Positions 4,555 to 43,005 of a stretch of DNA of 64,000 nt are shown here, one piece after another; position 1 is the stretch's first letter; each line of letters opens with the position of its first letter. The stretch lies in IMG/VR virus record IMGVR_UViG_3300005805_000044. One strand, written 5' to 3'. Below the pieces are notes generated by a model. The model did not search any database and was not told the origin of the DNA. It saw only the letters and a list, made by a program, of their open reading frames with translations. A program made the translations under genes and the position numbers. The DNA comes from a virus.

Positions 4555-5196
4555 ATGTTTTTATCATTTTTGGTTACAACACACAATGAAACAGATTGTT
4601 TAGATAAATTATTGTCTAAATTATGTAATGTCTTGAAACCAAATCAAGAGATTGTAATTGTAGATGATCATTCTACTAACCCAATCACTCTTGAAATCTT
4701 TGAAAAATATAAGAATTCAATTATTCTTCATCGACATAAGTTGGACAACAACTATGGTGCTCAAAAAAATTATGGTGTAGAAAATTGTAGAGGTGAATGG
4801 ATATTTCAAATAGATGCTGACGAATATCCAACTGATTTATTGTTGCAACATTTGTCATTAATAATTGAACAAAATAACAGTAATGATCTTATTTGGTTGC
4901 CACGTTGTAATTATTTTTTAGGTGTAACACAAAGTGATATTGATCGATGGGGATGGCAATACAGAGACAATATGGTAAATTTCCCAGATTACCAAGCACG
5001 TTTATTTCGTAACAAACCATTCATACGTTACAAAAAAAGATTGCATGAACGTGTTGATGGTTATGAAAGTTATACATTAATTCCTCCTCAAAAAGATTAT
5101 GCTATAATTCACGAAAAGACTATTGAGAAACAACGTGAATCAAACGAGAGATACAACAAACATTTCACTGTGGAAGAAAATATGGGAATGTCATGA
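4555..5196 (+). CDS. GT2 glycosyltransferase
   Basis: TTHNE, IVIVDDHS, QKNYG, IDADE (DxD), LHE. Confidence 0.9.
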   Translation: MFLSFLVTTHNETDCLDKLLSKLCNVLKPNQEIVIVDDHSTNPITLEIFEKYKNSIILHRHKLDNNYGAQKNYGVENCRGEWIFQIDADEYPTDLLLQHLSLIIEQNNSNDLIWLPRCNYFLGVTQSDIDRWGWQYRDNMVNFPDYQARLFRNKPFIRYKKRLHERVDGYESYTLIPPQKDYAIIHEKTIEKQRESNERYNKHFTVEENMGMS

Positions 5197-6158
5197 AAAC
5201 ATGTTTTATTAGTCCAATTAATATTGTAGGTAAAGTTCCAAGAACATTCAAAAACATGAGTGTGGTTGTATCTTGGCCTACTTCCTCTGAATCAGATATA
5301 TTGCCGATTTATTCTGTTGCTTCCGCACCCGTTGATAGTTTAAAACAAGAATATGATTTGGGAGTAATAATACTTCCTAAAAATCTCAAAGACCTTAACC
5401 TTGATACACTTTTAATAAATGCTAAAAAGTTGTGTAGAAAAATAGGTGTAATGCAAGAAGGTAGTCATTGGTATTATCAAGACTACAATTATGTCGATCA
5501 AATTCGTTATTTGAATTTCTTAGGATCTATGGATGTAATGTTTGCTCATAATAAAACAGACGTTCCGTATTTTCGTGGTATGTTTAAAAAACCAACGTAT
5601 ACTCTTCAAACATTGATTGTAGATGATGGTATAAAAGAACGAAATGTAACTCCATCACGAAATGGTGAACCTATTATTGGTGGTAATTTTTGTAGTTGGT
5701 ATAGTGGAATGGATAGTTACTTTGTGGCTAGAAATTTTAACAAACCAATTTGGATTCCAAGTATGGGTCGAAAGATAGAAAATGAAGAACTCATTCCAAA
5801 CTTGAATCACTTACCATTTTTAGAATGGATTGATTGGATGGAACAATTGTCTAGATTCAGTTATGGTATTCATTTGATGAGACCCAGAGTTGCAGGAACG
5901 TTTGCATTGAACTGTTCTTATTGGGGTATTCCATGTATTGGTTATAAAGGATTGGATACACAAGACATACTTCATCCATCATTGAGTGTAGAAGTTGGAG
6001 ATATTGAATCCGCCAACGCATTGGCAATACGTCTACGTGATGACAAAGACTTTTATGATGAGTGTGTGAATACAACCACAACAAATTATGATAAATATTA
6101 CAAAGAATCTGTTTGGTTGGAAAAGTGGAAAGAGATGTGTGAAGATATACTCAAATGA
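5193..6158 (+). CDS. putative GT-B glycosyltransferase
   Basis: C-terminal AGTFALNCSYWGIPCIG and helical tail like GT-B; position inside the GT cluster. Confidence 0.55.
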   Translation: MKTCFISPINIVGKVPRTFKNMSVVVSWPTSSESDILPIYSVASAPVDSLKQEYDLGVIILPKNLKDLNLDTLLINAKKLCRKIGVMQEGSHWYYQDYNYVDQIRYLNFLGSMDVMFAHNKTDVPYFRGMFKKPTYTLQTLIVDDGIKERNVTPSRNGEPIIGGNFCSWYSGMDSYFVARNFNKPIWIPSMGRKIENEELIPNLNHLPFLEWIDWMEQLSRFSYGIHLMRPRVAGTFALNCSYWGIPCIGYKGLDTQDILHPSLSVEVGDIESANALAIRLRDDKDFYDECVNTTTTNYDKYYKESVWLEKWKEMCEDILK

Positions 6159-37927: not shown

Positions 37928-40561
37928 TTAGAATGTTGCTTGTCCTAATGATCCTCTTGTATTAGAAGATTTAGCCAAAGCATAGTTAACCTTTTGACCA
38001 TCAAGATTAACTGAGATACCACCATTAACCATAGTTTCAGTTAAGTTATCGACTCTATCAGCAATAAATCTTAAACCTTCTTCTAGTTTTGCCATACCAG
38101 CATCTTTTGTCTCGTTCATCTTGGCTAATACTTCAGCTCCTTTTACATCAATATTGAGTTCTGGTAGTTTAGTTCCAGACAGTTCTTTTAATGCACCAGC
38201 AGCAACTTTGATTCCAGCAGCTGCATTGCTCAATAATGACAACTGTGTTGTTATTCTGGTCAATTCTCTTGTGGGAAACAATATCATAGCAGCACCCAAT
38301 ATACCCAGTGAGTAACTTAGTGCTGTTATACCTGCTGCTCCAACAAGAAGTAATGGAGCAACAAGAGCAAGTTTTATAAGTGGAGCAGAAACACCAGCTA
38401 TGACCTCTGGTAGTTGTTTGAATGCTGCCAACATGGTTTCAAATGCTTTGGTAAGAACTCCGGCTACAATAGTTGCCAACCCAGTAAATATCACTCCCAA
38501 AATTGCGAGTGATGGAGCTATCATTTGAATAGCTTTAGCAAATCCAATTGCTGCTAATGATACTATTCCTAGAGCAGCTGCAAATAATATTACCCCCACA
38601 TTTAAACCTGGTATCAACATTATTGCTCCTAGTGCTACCAGTGAAGCACCAAGTATTACCAAAGCAGCGGTAAATGTCATTATTTGTTCGCCACTCACAC
38701 TTCCCAACATACTAAATGCTTTGGCTAGACCCATCACCGATAATGTTAATATTCCTAAAACCAGTGCCATTTTTATAAGTTGAGCTGGACTTATTGAACC
38801 AAATGCTGACGCCATACCTTTGATTCCGTTTGCCATAGCCTCCAGTCCTTTACCAACACCAGTTCCGGCAGATTCTGCAGCTTTTGCCAAGGCATCTCCA
38901 AGAAAATTAAGCACAGAGGATAATGTTCCTTTTAGTAGTTTAAACGTTCCAATTACTAAAAGAATGGCCGTAACGCCTACTGCTGCCCATTTACCAAGTG
39001 GATTTTCAATATTGGTTATTAACGATATAAATTTGAAGAAATAAACTTGAACACCCATGATCAAGTCATAAAGTGGTTTCATCAATTTACCAATATTATT
39101 CAAAGCTTCTTGTTTTGCTTGAGTTAATTTTTGAAGTTCTGCTTCAGCAGTTTTTTGTTCAAGTATTTTTTTGAGTTCTTCTTTACGTGCTTCAAGTCCA
39201 CCCTTCTGTAATTTTTCAAGCTCCTTTTGAGCCTTTTTCATTTTTTCTGCTTCTTCTGGGAACATACGTTCAGCCTCAAGCATGTTCTTACGTTGAGTTT
39301 GAATCTTTTGTAGTTCACCAAAATCTTTACCAGTAGCTTCAGCAAGTGCTTTACGTTGGTTGTAATTCAATTTATCAAGATCACCAACACGTTCAACTTC
39401 TTTTTGTAATGCTTTTTCAGCACCAAGCAAATCACCAGCAAATGCCAATCTACGTGATTCATTAAAATTTATATTTTGACCAAGCAATGCGGAGGCTTTT
39501 AATTCTGCACCAATTGATGATTCAAAATTTAAAAGTGCTTCGGCTGACTTGGCCATACCGTCTAATGAAGTTCCGAGTTTTCTTGCTTCAGCTGCTTGTT
39601 TGATTAACTCAGCAGTATTGCCTTTAAAGATTGTTCTAACAGCACCACTTGCACTGGCAACATCTCTCATTACTGTGCCGATTGGAACACCGGCTGCTTC
39701 GGCTGCTTTAGAAGCAATTGCGGTCATTGCTTCTTGAGCCATAACAGACGTGCCGCCTACTTCAGCAAGTGTGGTTTGAAACTTGGTTGCTTCATCAACA
39801 CTCAAACCAGTCAAACGACTAATGTTTGCTGATTCTTTACCAATTGCGGCAAGTTGTGGTCCAGTAAGAGCATATTCTTTACGAATAGCAGTAACGGCAG
39901 CAAGTATTTCTTGATTTGATGCTAAATTAGTTGATAATCCAGTATTGACTTTCTGAATTTCTTTATACTGATTATTAATTTCGTCTTTGGTTGTTCCTTG
40001 TGCTTTGGCAGTATCGCTCAACAATTTGTCATATCCTTCGGCCAATGACATGATTGTTTGATATACTCCTAAAATTTTGTCGTAAAGTTCTCTATTTTTG
40101 TTTAGTGCTGCAGCTTCTCGTTCTGCTTCTTTGGCTGCAACCCCTGCTAATTGAGCTTTTTTACCTATTAAAAGTTTTTGTTTTTCAAGATTATCGTTTT
40201 GTAATTGTGTTAGTCGAACTTGTTCTGTTGCTGTCAAACTTGATTTTGACGCCAAATTATTTCTTTCAGCAATTAAACTTTTAATTTGAAACATCTGACC
40301 TATTGCATTTTCTTGAACACTCTTCATTTCAAGAGCTTTGTTTTTTAATGCAGTTTCTTGAACTTGCATTTCCGCTAACTTTTTTGTAGTCAATGCAGCT
40401 GGATCAACCCAACCGTTCATTTTTTTACCAAGATCTTCAGCCGATCTAGTAATAGAATTAAGGTTCTTCATACCTTCTTCAAGTTCTTTAGCAAATTTTT
40501 TGCCAACTCCTTGAAGTGCTTGTTCCAAACTTCTGATGTCTTTATCGAACGACGATGCCAT
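37928..40561 (-). CDS. tail tape measure protein
   Basis: 877 aa, Ala/Leu/Gly-rich helical, hydrophobic C-terminal half, ends VNLDGQKV; follows chaperone-like gene. Confidence 0.85.
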   Translation of the reverse strand: MASSFDKDIRSLEQALQGVGKKFAKELEEGMKNLNSITRSAEDLGKKMNGWVDPAALTTKKLAEMQVQETALKNKALEMKSVQENAIGQMFQIKSLIAERNNLASKSSLTATEQVRLTQLQNDNLEKQKLLIGKKAQLAGVAAKEAEREAAALNKNRELYDKILGVYQTIMSLAEGYDKLLSDTAKAQGTTKDEINNQYKEIQKVNTGLSTNLASNQEILAAVTAIRKEYALTGPQLAAIGKESANISRLTGLSVDEATKFQTTLAEVGGTSVMAQEAMTAIASKAAEAAGVPIGTVMRDVASASGAVRTIFKGNTAELIKQAAEARKLGTSLDGMAKSAEALLNFESSIGAELKASALLGQNINFNESRRLAFAGDLLGAEKALQKEVERVGDLDKLNYNQRKALAEATGKDFGELQKIQTQRKNMLEAERMFPEEAEKMKKAQKELEKLQKGGLEARKEELKKILEQKTAEAELQKLTQAKQEALNNIGKLMKPLYDLIMGVQVYFFKFISLITNIENPLGKWAAVGVTAILLVIGTFKLLKGTLSSVLNFLGDALAKAAESAGTGVGKGLEAMANGIKGMASAFGSISPAQLIKMALVLGILTLSVMGLAKAFSMLGSVSGEQIMTFTAALVILGASLVALGAIMLIPGLNVGVILFAAALGIVSLAAIGFAKAIQMIAPSLAILGVIFTGLATIVAGVLTKAFETMLAAFKQLPEVIAGVSAPLIKLALVAPLLLVGAAGITALSYSLGILGAAMILFPTRELTRITTQLSLLSNAAAGIKVAAGALKELSGTKLPELNIDVKGAEVLAKMNETKDAGMAKLEEGLRFIADRVDNLTETMVNGGISVNLDGQKVNYALAKSSNTRGSLGQATF

Positions 40562-40590: not shown

Positions 40591-40818
40591 TTAGCCAAAA
40601 CTAGGTCTATCTATTTTACCAGAACGTGGTGGTGGTTTTGATGCTGATTTTGTTTGTTCAGCCTCTTTTTCCTTGGCATCTATGAGTTTTTTGTAATAAA
40701 AATTTCTAAGATATACTGGTAGGTTGTATACCTCAGTCGGAAAGAATCCTCCATTACCATAATAACAGAGGTCAAATATAACTTGTTGGATGTAAACCTT
40801 ATACTCTGGAGTCAGGCC
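40591..40818 (-). CDS. start-less ORF (75 aa), probable frameshift extension of the upstream chaperone
   Basis: GLTPEYKVYIQQVIFDLCYYGNGGFFPTEVYNLPVYLRNFYYKKLIDAKEKE...RPSFG; no ATG/GTG/TTG; begins right after a T7 run. Confidence 0.75.
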   Translation of the reverse strand, partial: GLTPEYKVYIQQVIFDLCYYGNGGFFPTEVYNLPVYLRNFYYKKLIDAKEKEAEQTKSASKPPPRSGKIDRPSFG

Positions 40819-41605
40819 AAAAAAATTGGACAGTCATTGGCACTGCTGCCCTTTCTTCGGCACCGCACTCTTTGCAACTAAAGTCAAATGATGAATCAAT
40901 ATCGGGAGTAAATTCTCTTACATATTGACGTAGAGCTAAACTGTCTCTACTTTGCATATTGTCAACAAATGACTTGATCTTGACTGGATCCTCATCACCA
41001 TTGACTTCTACAATCATTTTCTTTAGACGTGATGTAATTTCAGCAGAAGCAGTCTTGTTTAATTTTGTCAAAGCTGTTGCATCACGTTCAATAGACTTTT
41101 CGTCTTCGTCTGTCAACAATTTAAACTTTATATTAACCTTTGAATAGGGTAAAGTATAATCAAACAAATTTACGCCTGGTTCAAATTTTGTTTCGTCCAA
41201 TTCCTTTTCTTTGAGCTCACTCAGATTTACATTTACTTTGTTAACAGATTGACATTTAGGACATGGAACATCAACTGGACCATAATTGTCACCATAAGCT
41301 ATACGACGAACTGCAAAGATTACAGCATTTTTATCGCCAATAAGAAAGTCGGTTGTTTTGATGTTTTTATCAACAATAAGAGACTCAAGAAGTTTATCAA
41401 TTGCCAATCCTTTCTTGAGAAGATTTGGGCTGGTAAGAATATCTTCTTCTTTAGCAGTCATCATCTTTATTTCAACTGTTCCTTTTGATAATGGATGATT
41501 TGCTGGATAAAACAATCCTTTACTTGGAAGATCTATAACTTCAGTAGGAAACGTATTTTGTGGTTTATTGACCGCTGTTCTTTGTAAAACAATTTCTTCG
41601 CTCAT
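40799..41605 (-). CDS. gp26-like baseplate hub / tail assembly chaperone
   Basis: LPSKG, MTAKEEDIL, two CxxC motifs, C-terminal FFWP. Confidence 0.75.
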   Translation of the reverse strand: MSEEIVLQRTAVNKPQNTFPTEVIDLPSKGLFYPANHPLSKGTVEIKMMTAKEEDILTSPNLLKKGLAIDKLLESLIVDKNIKTTDFLIGDKNAVIFAVRRIAYGDNYGPVDVPCPKCQSVNKVNVNLSELKEKELDETKFEPGVNLFDYTLPYSKVNIKFKLLTDEDEKSIERDATALTKLNKTASAEITSRLKKMIVEVNGDEDPVKIKSFVDNMQSRDSLALRQYVREFTPDIDSSFDFSCKECGAEERAAVPMTVQFFWPDSRV

Positions 41606-41649: not shown

Positions 41650-42438
41650 TTATTTTGGCTTTATTTTATTTTGAGCATCTTGAGCCGCCTTAGTCAAAAT
41701 TGTAGCTCTGGTATTAATTTTAGCAATAGCATCTTTGAATGATGATTCTGGTCCAATTAACGCATCCATAAAACTATTGTCTTCTTTAATCATTTGTTTC
41801 ACTATTTCCTTATACTTTTGTTTTTTAGCTTCATCCATAGGTTTATTTTTGGTTAATATATTATAAATACTCTTGACCACACCAGTTTTTACACCTGGAT
41901 AATTAGTGGTAAAATTTTCAAAATCGTTGTTTGCTAAATCTTGTCTCAATGTGCTAGCACTGATACTTTGTCCATTTTTATCATCAGTTCTACCTTGATA
42001 CAATACTGGAGCATCATCAGTCATTTCTACAGACGATACATTTTCTGGTGCTGTTCGGCCGTCCTTTGTTGGTTTGGTTTTATAACGTTGAATAGCAGCA
42101 GAAAATATCTTGCTACGTTTTGCATCTTCTGGACTCTTTGAACTTGCAGCCAAAGCAATCACTTCATTACTGTCTTTTGGCAAACCAAATACGTATCCAA
42201 AAGCAGCATTCATTGGACTGTCATCATCTACTGGAACCACTTTGATCTTTGGGTTGGTAGGCAATAGGTTCCAAATAGCCACACTTTGTTGACGATTGAT
42301 GCCATCACGTTCACTGGGTCCAACCATCACAATTACTTTGCCTACATCAGCCCTACTGGCAAATTTGTTAGCTAACCCCAAATGTCCAGCATGTGGTGGT
42401 TTAAATCCGCCTGGTAGTAGCACCGTTACTTTGTTCAT
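41650..42438 (-). CDS. HIGH-superfamily nucleotidyltransferase (cytidylyltransferase/NMNAT-like)
   Basis: PGGFKPPHAGH and ISASTLR motifs. Confidence 0.8.
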   Translation of the reverse strand: MNKVTVLLPGGFKPPHAGHLGLANKFASRADVGKVIVMVGPSERDGINRQQSVAIWNLLPTNPKIKVVPVDDDSPMNAAFGYVFGLPKDSNEVIALAASSKSPEDAKRSKIFSAAIQRYKTKPTKDGRTAPENVSSVEMTDDAPVLYQGRTDDKNGQSISASTLRQDLANNDFENFTTNYPGVKTGVVKSIYNILTKNKPMDEAKKQKYKEIVKQMIKEDNSFMDALIGPESSFKDAIAKINTRATILTKAAQDAQNKIKPK

Positions 42439-42513: not shown

Positions 42514-43005
42514 TTAGTATTGAAGGATACAGTAGTCAGGTTGAATGGTCAAGTTGATTTTCATTGCTTCACCATCATTGCTCCAGTCTAGTGAGTTAAA
42601 TGATGCTTCAGTGATGAATGCTCCCTTGAGGGTCCATTCTTCAACCTTATCACCAACTGGACCTAGAACGTTGACGGTCAAGTCTTTCTTGTAAAAGTCT
42701 TGATAACCATCACGACCAGTTACAGATTCGTGGTGTAGACGAACCCATTCCATTACAGCTTGAGCACCACTTGGAACAATTGGATCATATAGTTCCATTG
42801 TGATTGTTCCCCAAATGCTCTTGCCTTTGTAGAAGGTTCTGATGTTGATGTGATCAAGTTCTTTTGCAGCTTGAGTTATCTTTGGACGGTCTGTCTTCTT
42901 GATAATAAATGAAGGAATGCCGTCACAATACAAGATAAAGCGATTTTGAACCTTTGGCTCAAACGCTGTGTAAAATATTTCCGATGGATTTAGTAGTTCT
43001 GCCAT
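42514..43005 (-). CDS. gp19: tail tube protein (T4 gp19-like)
   Basis: EPKVQNRF, W.TIT..LYDP, EW, YKKD, EEWTLKGAF, LDW, DY. Confidence 0.88.
   Translation of the reverse strand: MAELLNPSEIFYTAFEPKVQNRFILYCDGIPSFIIKKTDRPKITQAAKELDHINIRTFYKGKSIWGTITMELYDPIVPSGAQAVMEWVRLHHESVTGRDGYQDFYKKDLTVNVLGPVGDKVEEWTLKGAFITEASFNSLDWSNDGEAMKINLTIQPDYCILQY

Follow-up and report, generated by a model that had tools for sequence, protein, structure and literature searches.

In the DNA of a freshwater T4-type phage (IMG/VR record IMGVR_UViG_3300005805_000044; the stretch of 64,000 nucleotides analyzed here is referred to below as the window), a gene similar to that of the T4 baseplate protein gp26 lies directly upstream of the tape measure gene. 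We propose, with a probability that we put at roughly 0.8, that ribosomes undergo a programmed +1 frameshift shortly before the end of this gene, which yields two proteins, a gp26-like short form that ends at the zero-frame stop codon and a 337-residue long form that continues into an open reading frame (ORF) lacking a start codon of its own. An earlier note, made from the window's letters, had already suggested a programmed frameshift that links the gp26-like gene to a hidden ORF, and this suggestion is now backed by a conserved slippery site, purifying selection on the downstream frame, collinear homologues in which both parts share one frame, and relatives in which the two forms belong to two genes.

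The gp26-like gene (40799 to 41605, minus strand) encodes, in the zero frame, 268 residues with two CxxC pairs and the C-terminal end VQFFWPDSRV. Its 3' end reads CAA TTT TTT TGG CCT GAC TCC AGA GTA TAA and contains a run of seven thymines (40819 to 40825, minus; T7, or U7 in the mRNA), which the zero frame divides into UUU (40825-40823), UUU (40822-40820), and UGG (40819-40817). Four codons upstream of the run, a TGA (40834 to 40836, minus) opens the +1 frame, which then runs CTG TCC AAT TTT TTT GGC and remains open until the TAA at 40593-40591; this TGA and the zero-frame stop codon TAA (40799 to 40801, minus) form the 5' and 3' limits, respectively, of the region in which a shift could take place. 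The extension proper (40591 to 40818, minus, including its stop codon) consists of 75 sense codons, from the GGC at 40818-40816 through a GGC ending at 40594, and starts with GLTPEYKVYIQQVIFDLCYYGNGGFFPTEVYNLPVYLRNFYYKKLIDAKEKEAEQ, followed by a basic, low-complexity tail. No ATG, GTG, or TTG is present in the +1 frame, and no ORF of at least 40 residues was listed there; the -1 frame is closed immediately after the run (GCC TGA). When the frame is shifted by reading TGGC as a single step, a product of 337 residues with the junction VQFF/GLTPEYK is obtained. All coordinates in the earlier note, i.e., those of the gene end, the T7 run, the TGA-opened frame without a start, and its 75 codons up to the TAA at 40591, proved correct, as did the fusion of about 337 residues and the junction peptide VQFFGLTPEYK that it had predicted for a +1 shift. 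Its description of the hidden ORF as filling the gap before the tape measure gene also holds: 208 of the 237 nucleotides that would otherwise be noncoding are occupied by the +1 ORF, with 29 nucleotides left between its stop codon and the ATG of the tape measure gene (40561).

Taken by itself, a single open frame means little in a genome with 35% G+C, and 26 of 110 alternative frames were open for at least 69 codons past a stop codon, mostly because they were the next gene. Since neighboring genes thus keep alternative frames open, the weight of the argument rests on comparison. With the short protein as the query, viral contigs were scanned for relatives, which returned 80 loci (51 to 100% identity), and a second scan, with the alignment as the query, added more distant loci (at least 44 further); the combined frameshift-type set comprises 131 loci with 58 distinct sequences, down to approximately 30% identity. 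The earlier note had named conservation of the slippery site and of the downstream frame as a check on its proposal, and both are kept throughout this set. All 80 loci from the first scan retain TTT TGG CCT and an open +1 ORF, which opens 26 to 95 nucleotides before the zero-frame stop codon and, in 79 of them (the L054 locus ends first), extends 178 to 217 nucleotides beyond it. Across both scans, the arrangement can be summarized as YTT T(GG/AC) CCT with a +1 ORF of 68 to 142 codons, and the open frame is the +1 frame in all 131 loci. The shift codon is YTT, followed by T, in each of the 58 distinct sequences, with the sites TTT TTT TGG (TTTTTTTGG; 39 sequences), TTT TTT TAC (TTTTTTTAC; 10 sequences), TTC TTT TGG (TTCTTTTGG; 8 sequences), and TTT CTT TGG (TTTCTTTGG; 1 sequence, from Flavobacterium phage immuto [MW353176]), such that the zero-frame codon in the ribosomal aminoacyl (A) site is UGG in 48 and UAC in 10. 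With the fusion as a tblastn query, immuto and Microcystis phage Mel-JY01 (PP395634) were each matched in two pieces, in different frames.

The +1 peptides of the relatives follow the pattern FFGL[TS]PEYK..IF.L.YY..G.F....Y.LP..LR.FY..KL...K.KE and, on this alignment, are clearly homologous. Residue conservation starts exactly at FFG, within the overlap between the two frames and upstream of any candidate start codon; a conserved start codon is absent from the +1 ORFs of the relatives, in which the first ATG, GTG, or TTG either is missing or is found at codon 12 to 72. Past the zero-frame stop codon, nucleotide diversity at the three codon positions of the +1 frame was 0.39/0.28/0.57, the same pattern as that in the upstream gene (0.36/0.27/0.52). 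Judged from this pattern, the start-less +1 ORF is coding and under purifying selection. Contigs that came from four independent studies all carried the identical T7 run, with neither insertions nor deletions, and this constancy, together with the conservation of the site and the ORF, excludes an assembly artifact, a pseudogene, and a chance open frame. At the nucleotide level, Logan contigs of several runs (X4, X6, and X3) end or fork within about 40 nucleotides of the T run (window positions 40759 to 40860), breaks that point to strain microdiversity or to discontinuities in the assembly graph; the length of the run is constant. One metagenomic contig (L130, positions 4887 to 5950; IMGVR_UViG_3300045125_000089, 96.7 kb), with 82% identity to a frameshift-type relative (L114), lacks one T at the site (GAC TTC TTT GGC CTA), which places the junction in frame, and its gp26 body is interrupted midway by another frame break, beside a short A run. 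These frame differences are probably homopolymer sequencing errors, although the contig could be a real revertant.

Further evidence came from homologues in which no shift is required. An exhaustive search with the 76-residue extension yielded 310 representative proteins, mostly short ORFs that had been called separately; about a dozen of them, 271 to 318 residues long, combine a gp26-type body and the extension in one frame, with 10 representative clusters of single-frame long forms counted there, and a further search found 25 clusters of such in-frame long forms, on contigs of up to 91 kb. The predicted fusion aligns with these proteins from end to end, and the alignment is ungapped at the junction, where VQFFGLTPEYK faces, for instance, HSFFGITPQYK or KDFFGMDGSYK, and the four cysteine columns are invariant in this alignment (CPKC and CKEC in the window protein, resembling a zinc ribbon). 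A structure model of an in-frame homologue reached a predicted local distance difference test score (pLDDT) of 92.4 and a predicted template modeling (TM) score of 0.86, with the extension modeled as three helices (pLDDT above 90) followed by a disordered basic tail; it matched predicted "baseplate hub" proteins of many phages (best E value, 3.9e-14; TM-scores up to 0.78).

In all 29 loci with enough flanking sequence, a short gp26-like paralogue was located directly 5' of the in-frame long form. These short paralogues consist of the body only (profile positions 3 to 228) and end in PLGxxFFWPN plus 3 to 5 residues, i.e., in the same kind of C terminus as that of the zero-frame product in the window; in this sister lineage, the FFWP end is encoded on the nonslippery sequence TTC TTC TGG. 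That in-frame long forms are accompanied by a short gene throughout speaks for a requirement for both forms. By contrast, a second copy was found in none of 49 frameshift loci, each of which has one body and one overlapping extension, and when five frameshift genomes were searched with the profile, among them the complete genomes of the isolates immuto and Mel-JY01, exactly one copy was detected in each. The codon preceding TGG in 18 distinct short paralogues was TTC (14 sequences), TTT (2 sequences), TTG (1 sequence), or ATG (1 sequence), so that YTT is found in 58 of 58 frameshift genes versus 2 of 18 short paralogues (Fisher's exact test, P = 1.4e-14). Conservation of the slippery codon is thus limited to genes in which a shift is required. 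In a FastTree phylogeny of the bodies, the frameshift genes grouped with the short paralogues (support, 94), whereas the long paralogues formed a separate group (support, 100). In the lineage with tandem genes (L084, 960 to 964; L085, 4914 to 4998; L101, 4986 to 4995; L104, 4989 to 4992), the long paralogue usually starts with a GTG that overlaps or abuts the stop codon of the short paralogue (e.g., GTGTGA). This overlap suggests translational coupling, as another means by which the ratio of short to long form might be set.

In the mechanism that we envisage, most ribosomes would read through to the TAA and release the 268-residue short form, while a fraction would slip by +1, with the peptidyl-tRNA-Phe moving from the last UUU (40822-40820) to the UUU at 40821-40819; GGC (40818-40816), CUG, and ACU would then be decoded, giving rise to the 337-residue long form with its 75-residue helical C-terminal extension. 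At the TAC variants, the slip would be followed by decoding of ACC, and at the immuto-type site CUU would give way to UUU, as it does in prfB. The sequence variants themselves led us to infer that the slip takes place on the ribosome, at the last UUU codon. In some relatives (L027 and L031), only three codons separate the upstream +1 stop codon from GGC, and across the relatives the zero-frame stop codon follows three to six codons after TGG; with stop codons this close on both sides, the shift must be confined to the run itself. Re-pairing one base forward in the peptidyl (P) site fits every variant observed, from UUU to UUU in TTT TTT T and TTC TTT T and from CUU to UUU in TTT CTT T. Competition in the A site may favor the shift, as UGG and UAC are typically read by a single tRNA species and the tRNAs for GGC and ACC are usually abundant. 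The efficiency of the shift would probably be low. Both forms would be needed for assembly of the tail or baseplate hub beside the tape measure protein, a chaperone role that we infer from T4 genetics and from the position of the gene.

The same site invites other explanations, two of which also make use of the homopolymer. RNA polymerase could drop one U on T7, such that some mRNAs would carry U6 and encode the fusion in frame. Homopolymer runs are a known substrate for such transcriptional slippage, and T7 is uninterrupted in 39 of the 58 distinct sequences, with another 10 in which T7 is followed by AC; seven bases is, however, short for efficient polymerase slippage, and the +1 ORF is fully conserved in the eight distinct TTC TTT T lineages and in immuto (TTT CTT T), where runs of only three or four T's are left. 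Polymerase slippage on such runs is not credible, and we regard transcriptional slippage as very unlikely overall. The earlier note had left the direction of the shift open as +1 or -2, and a -2 ribosomal frameshift on U7, as proposed for Mu-type chaperones, would re-pair perfectly as well; its product (QFFFGLTPEYK at the junction, 338 residues) would be just one Phe longer, a difference that alignments cannot separate. At the interrupted sites, though, a -2 shift would place tRNA-Phe on UCU (TTC TTT TGG) or tRNA-Leu on UUC (TTT CTT TGG), leaving +1 as the only re-pairing possible, and the in-frame homologues have two aromatic residues before the glycine rather than three. The +1 half of that claim thus stands and the -2 half does not; we consider a -2 shift highly improbable. 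Because all variants fit a +1 shift and the interrupted runs fit neither a -2 shift nor polymerase slippage, a ribosomal +1 slip is the reading that we retain.

Two further explanations dispense with slippage in the run. The downstream ORF might be a separate small gene, translated from a noncanonical start codon (CTG or ATT) or by reinitiation after the zero-frame stop codon. Gene callers do list an ORF of 55 to 130 residues in many metagenomes, GenBank annotates fragments of the ORF as hypothetical proteins in immuto and Mel-JY01, and in some lineages an ATG happens to precede the conserved part of the +1 frame by a few codons (P0123, MGQTFFGL). Initiation at the CTG, or homologues with an ATG of their own and no slippery site, had been named in the earlier note as findings that would speak against a frameshift; instead, relatives have CTA or CTT in place of the CTG, a conserved start codon is lacking, and the slippery site is retained. 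Moreover, conservation begins at FFG, 5' of the candidate start codons and inside the overlap, the in-frame homologues fuse both parts, and the slippery codon is under selection, which together leave an independent gene about as improbable as the -2 shift. The least probable explanation, in our view a far-fetched one, is a four-base codon (UUUU or UGGC) read by a phage or host tRNA with an enlarged anticodon loop. Among the 42 tRNA genes of a relative with a genome of 303,564 bp (G002), there are indeed two with odd anticodon loops; ARAGORN reports for these the irregular anticodons "tc" (two bases) and "gata" (four bases) (L169, 1421 to 1492, and L185, 1418 to 1491). Neither of them fits UUUU or UGGC, as GAUA would read UAUC, and the complete genome of immuto keeps the arrangement with only tRNA-Ser, tRNA-Glu, and tRNA-Gln; in the window itself, no tRNA gene was found.

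The identity of the protein was established by profile searches. The 268-residue protein matched Pfam family PF12322 (T4_baseplate) with 58.2 bits (cutoff, 24.5), residues 39 to 263 covering profile positions 11 to 219 of 219, as did 41 of 57 aligned relatives, and it matched phrog_150 ("baseplate hub") with an E value of 2.4e-18. For the 75-codon extension, no family was matched in the Pfam and PHROG searches. A search of NCBIfam gave no family, and a DNA-level search of the phage collection gave no match. Leiman et al. (2010, PMC3004832) list T4 gp26 and gp51 as baseplate hub assembly chaperones; assembly of the hub requires both, and gp51 does not occur in the virion. PF12322 covers residues 1 to 206 of the 208 residues of T4 gp26, which ends in CPECGK..KEFFELL, and residues 1 to 201 of the 249 residues of gp51, after which a 48-residue tail follows. 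T4 therefore resembles the window in having, within PF12322, a short member that ends just past FF and a long member with a C-terminal tail; it differs in that the two are divergently transcribed genes that do not adjoin the tube gene, whereas the window has a single gene with a frameshift, and in that the window protein is related only distantly, with tblastn failing to reach T4. When the long forms were compared, by profile, with an alignment of the gp51 family, the match had a probability of 78% (E value, 1.8e-5) and was collinear through the tail, and in this alignment the extension is situated at the position of the gp51 tail. The closest protein relatives of the gp26-like gene are T4 gp26 and gp51 rather than lambda G/GT.

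Several observations weigh against a programmed frameshift with two functional products. No stimulator was found: the alignment of relatives contains no conserved Shine-Dalgarno-like sequence, and conserved downstream structure was also lacking (0 pairs in RNAalifold; single-sequence z-score, 0.07). Most relatives do have a palindrome, GTACC-N6-GGTAC (window positions 40826 to 40845, minus; columns 8 to 25 of the alignment of relatives), which ends 2 to 3 nucleotides before the run, but its paired fraction (76.5%) is matched by that in shuffled sequences (75.2%), and its covariation does not exceed what column composition gives. The A site holds a sense codon, UGG or UAC, instead of a stop codon or a known rare codon, and the efficiency of the shift is therefore unpredictable and may be very low. 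An uncultured huge phage of 484 kb (L083; LR756508.1) lacks the YTT_TGG motif. With regard to gp51, a profile built from the extension only gave a probability of 0.1% against the gp51 family, and PF28602, the gp51 tail family, which matches gp51 homologues, matched none of the 25 in-frame long forms. Finally, the case for the two frameshift products rests on sequence comparison. As a side note on the palindrome, the conserved codons for V-P-M-T-V-Q explain whatever covariation it shows. As for the huge phage, the extension is in the +1 frame there as well (positions 4726 to 4790), with AAC TTT CTA TTC CCT ACC GAG TGA at the site; the sole place for +1 re-pairing would be UUU_C, before a CUA codon, an assignment that is less certain than those for the other sites.

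The arrangement recalls that of lambda gpG and gpGT, the conserved tail assembly chaperone frameshift of long-tailed phages (Xu, Hendrix and Duda 2004, as cited in PMC8785237), to which the earlier note had already likened it. As in lambda, the gene is located directly 5' of the tape measure gene and 3' of the tube gene, both products, which in the window are predictions from sequence, would share an N-terminal body, the long form would arise from recoding shortly before the short ORF ends, and the downstream ORF has no start codon of its own. The window differs in that the shift would be +1 on YUU_U, whereas lambda uses a -1 shift on an X XXY YYZ heptamer, in that its -1 frame is closed after two codons, and in that its gene belongs to PF12322, with no match to any tail assembly chaperone family in Pfam or PHROG. 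An alignment of the in-frame homologue model to the chaperone YqbN (3klu) with VIA-align (Z-score, 4.5; root mean square deviation, 3.5; 81 residues) was within noise; for the same model, a wide VIA-align search gave no Z-score of 5 or more, and Foldseek found no match in the PDB. The only hit in a sequence search of the PDB, LrpC, was judged spurious. Of the proposed equivalence to G/GT, then, the gene position and the two-product logic stand, while the closest relatives are T4 gp26 and gp51 and no chaperone family is matched; we accordingly restrict the likeness to position and logic and do not extend it to ancestry.

With respect to the direction of the shift, the closest precedents are Escherichia coli prfB (CUU UGA C) and the capsid and tail genes of Listeria phage PSA (Zimmer et al. 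2003, as cited in PMC9024508). In these systems, as proposed for the window, the tRNA in the P site moves forward by one base on CUU_U or UUU_U and pairs again there, and the shift is located close to where the zero-frame ORF stops; in PSA, the context of phage structural genes is comparable as well. The differences are that the A site in the window holds a sense codon (UGG or UAC) in place of a stop codon and that neither a Shine-Dalgarno-like stimulator nor a pseudoknot was found around sites of the window type.

A search of the literature, whose coverage left out most subscription journals, turned up no frameshift described for gp26, gp51, or PF12322 genes. The gp26-like +1 site is most likely a variant on the known theme of tail chaperone frameshifts, judging from the comparisons above. 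Should the proposed mechanism be true, it would add to the known cases a conserved +1 shift on a sense codon without a visible stimulator, and it could be tested in the cultured phages immuto and Mel-JY01. It would also connect gp26 and gp51 of T4, two proteins about which little is understood, with the way in which lambda G/GT supplies two products. The coexistence of frameshift and tandem-gene lineages would offer a natural experiment on why both a short and a long chaperone are needed. More tentatively, and with odds that we place slightly below even, the gp26/gp51 family might be the counterpart of G/GT in the T4 superfamily, with short and long forms in a set ratio loading the tape measure protein into the hub and with lineages switching freely between a frameshift, as in this clade, and two separate genes, as in the sister clade and T4. 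In that case, UUU_UGG, with a sense codon in the A site and no detectable stimulator, would be a programmed +1 frameshift of a minimal type that is also widespread. On the practical side, the long form has been missed by gene callers: all 120 best database relatives were called at about 270 residues, and the GenBank records of the cultured phages list only a "baseplate hub subunit" and a stray hypothetical protein. The annotation of this locus is accordingly wrong in thousands of phage genomes from the environment.

Among the neighboring genes, the tape measure gene (37928 to 40561, minus) encodes 877 residues, with 24% identity over 784 residues to the annotated tape measure protein of immuto (E value, 7e-14), and the tail tube gene (42514 to 43005, minus; 163 residues), upstream in the same module, was identified by its match to phrog_4542 ("tail tube protein"; E value, 1.1e-25), with a weak match to Pfam Phage_T4_gp19. 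In immuto and Mel-JY01, the order is sheath, tube, gp26-like gene, a small "hypothetical protein," and tape measure, and the order sheath, tube, gp26-like gene, and tape measure was also found in metagenomic relatives (e.g., L142). The window has the order tube, one inserted gene, gp26-like gene, and tape measure. The inserted gene (41650 to 42438, minus) encodes 262 residues with a weakly nucleotidyltransferase- or cytidylyltransferase-like N terminus; in immuto, Mel-JY01, and L142, nothing more than a small ORF, if anything, lies between the tube gene and the chaperone gene.

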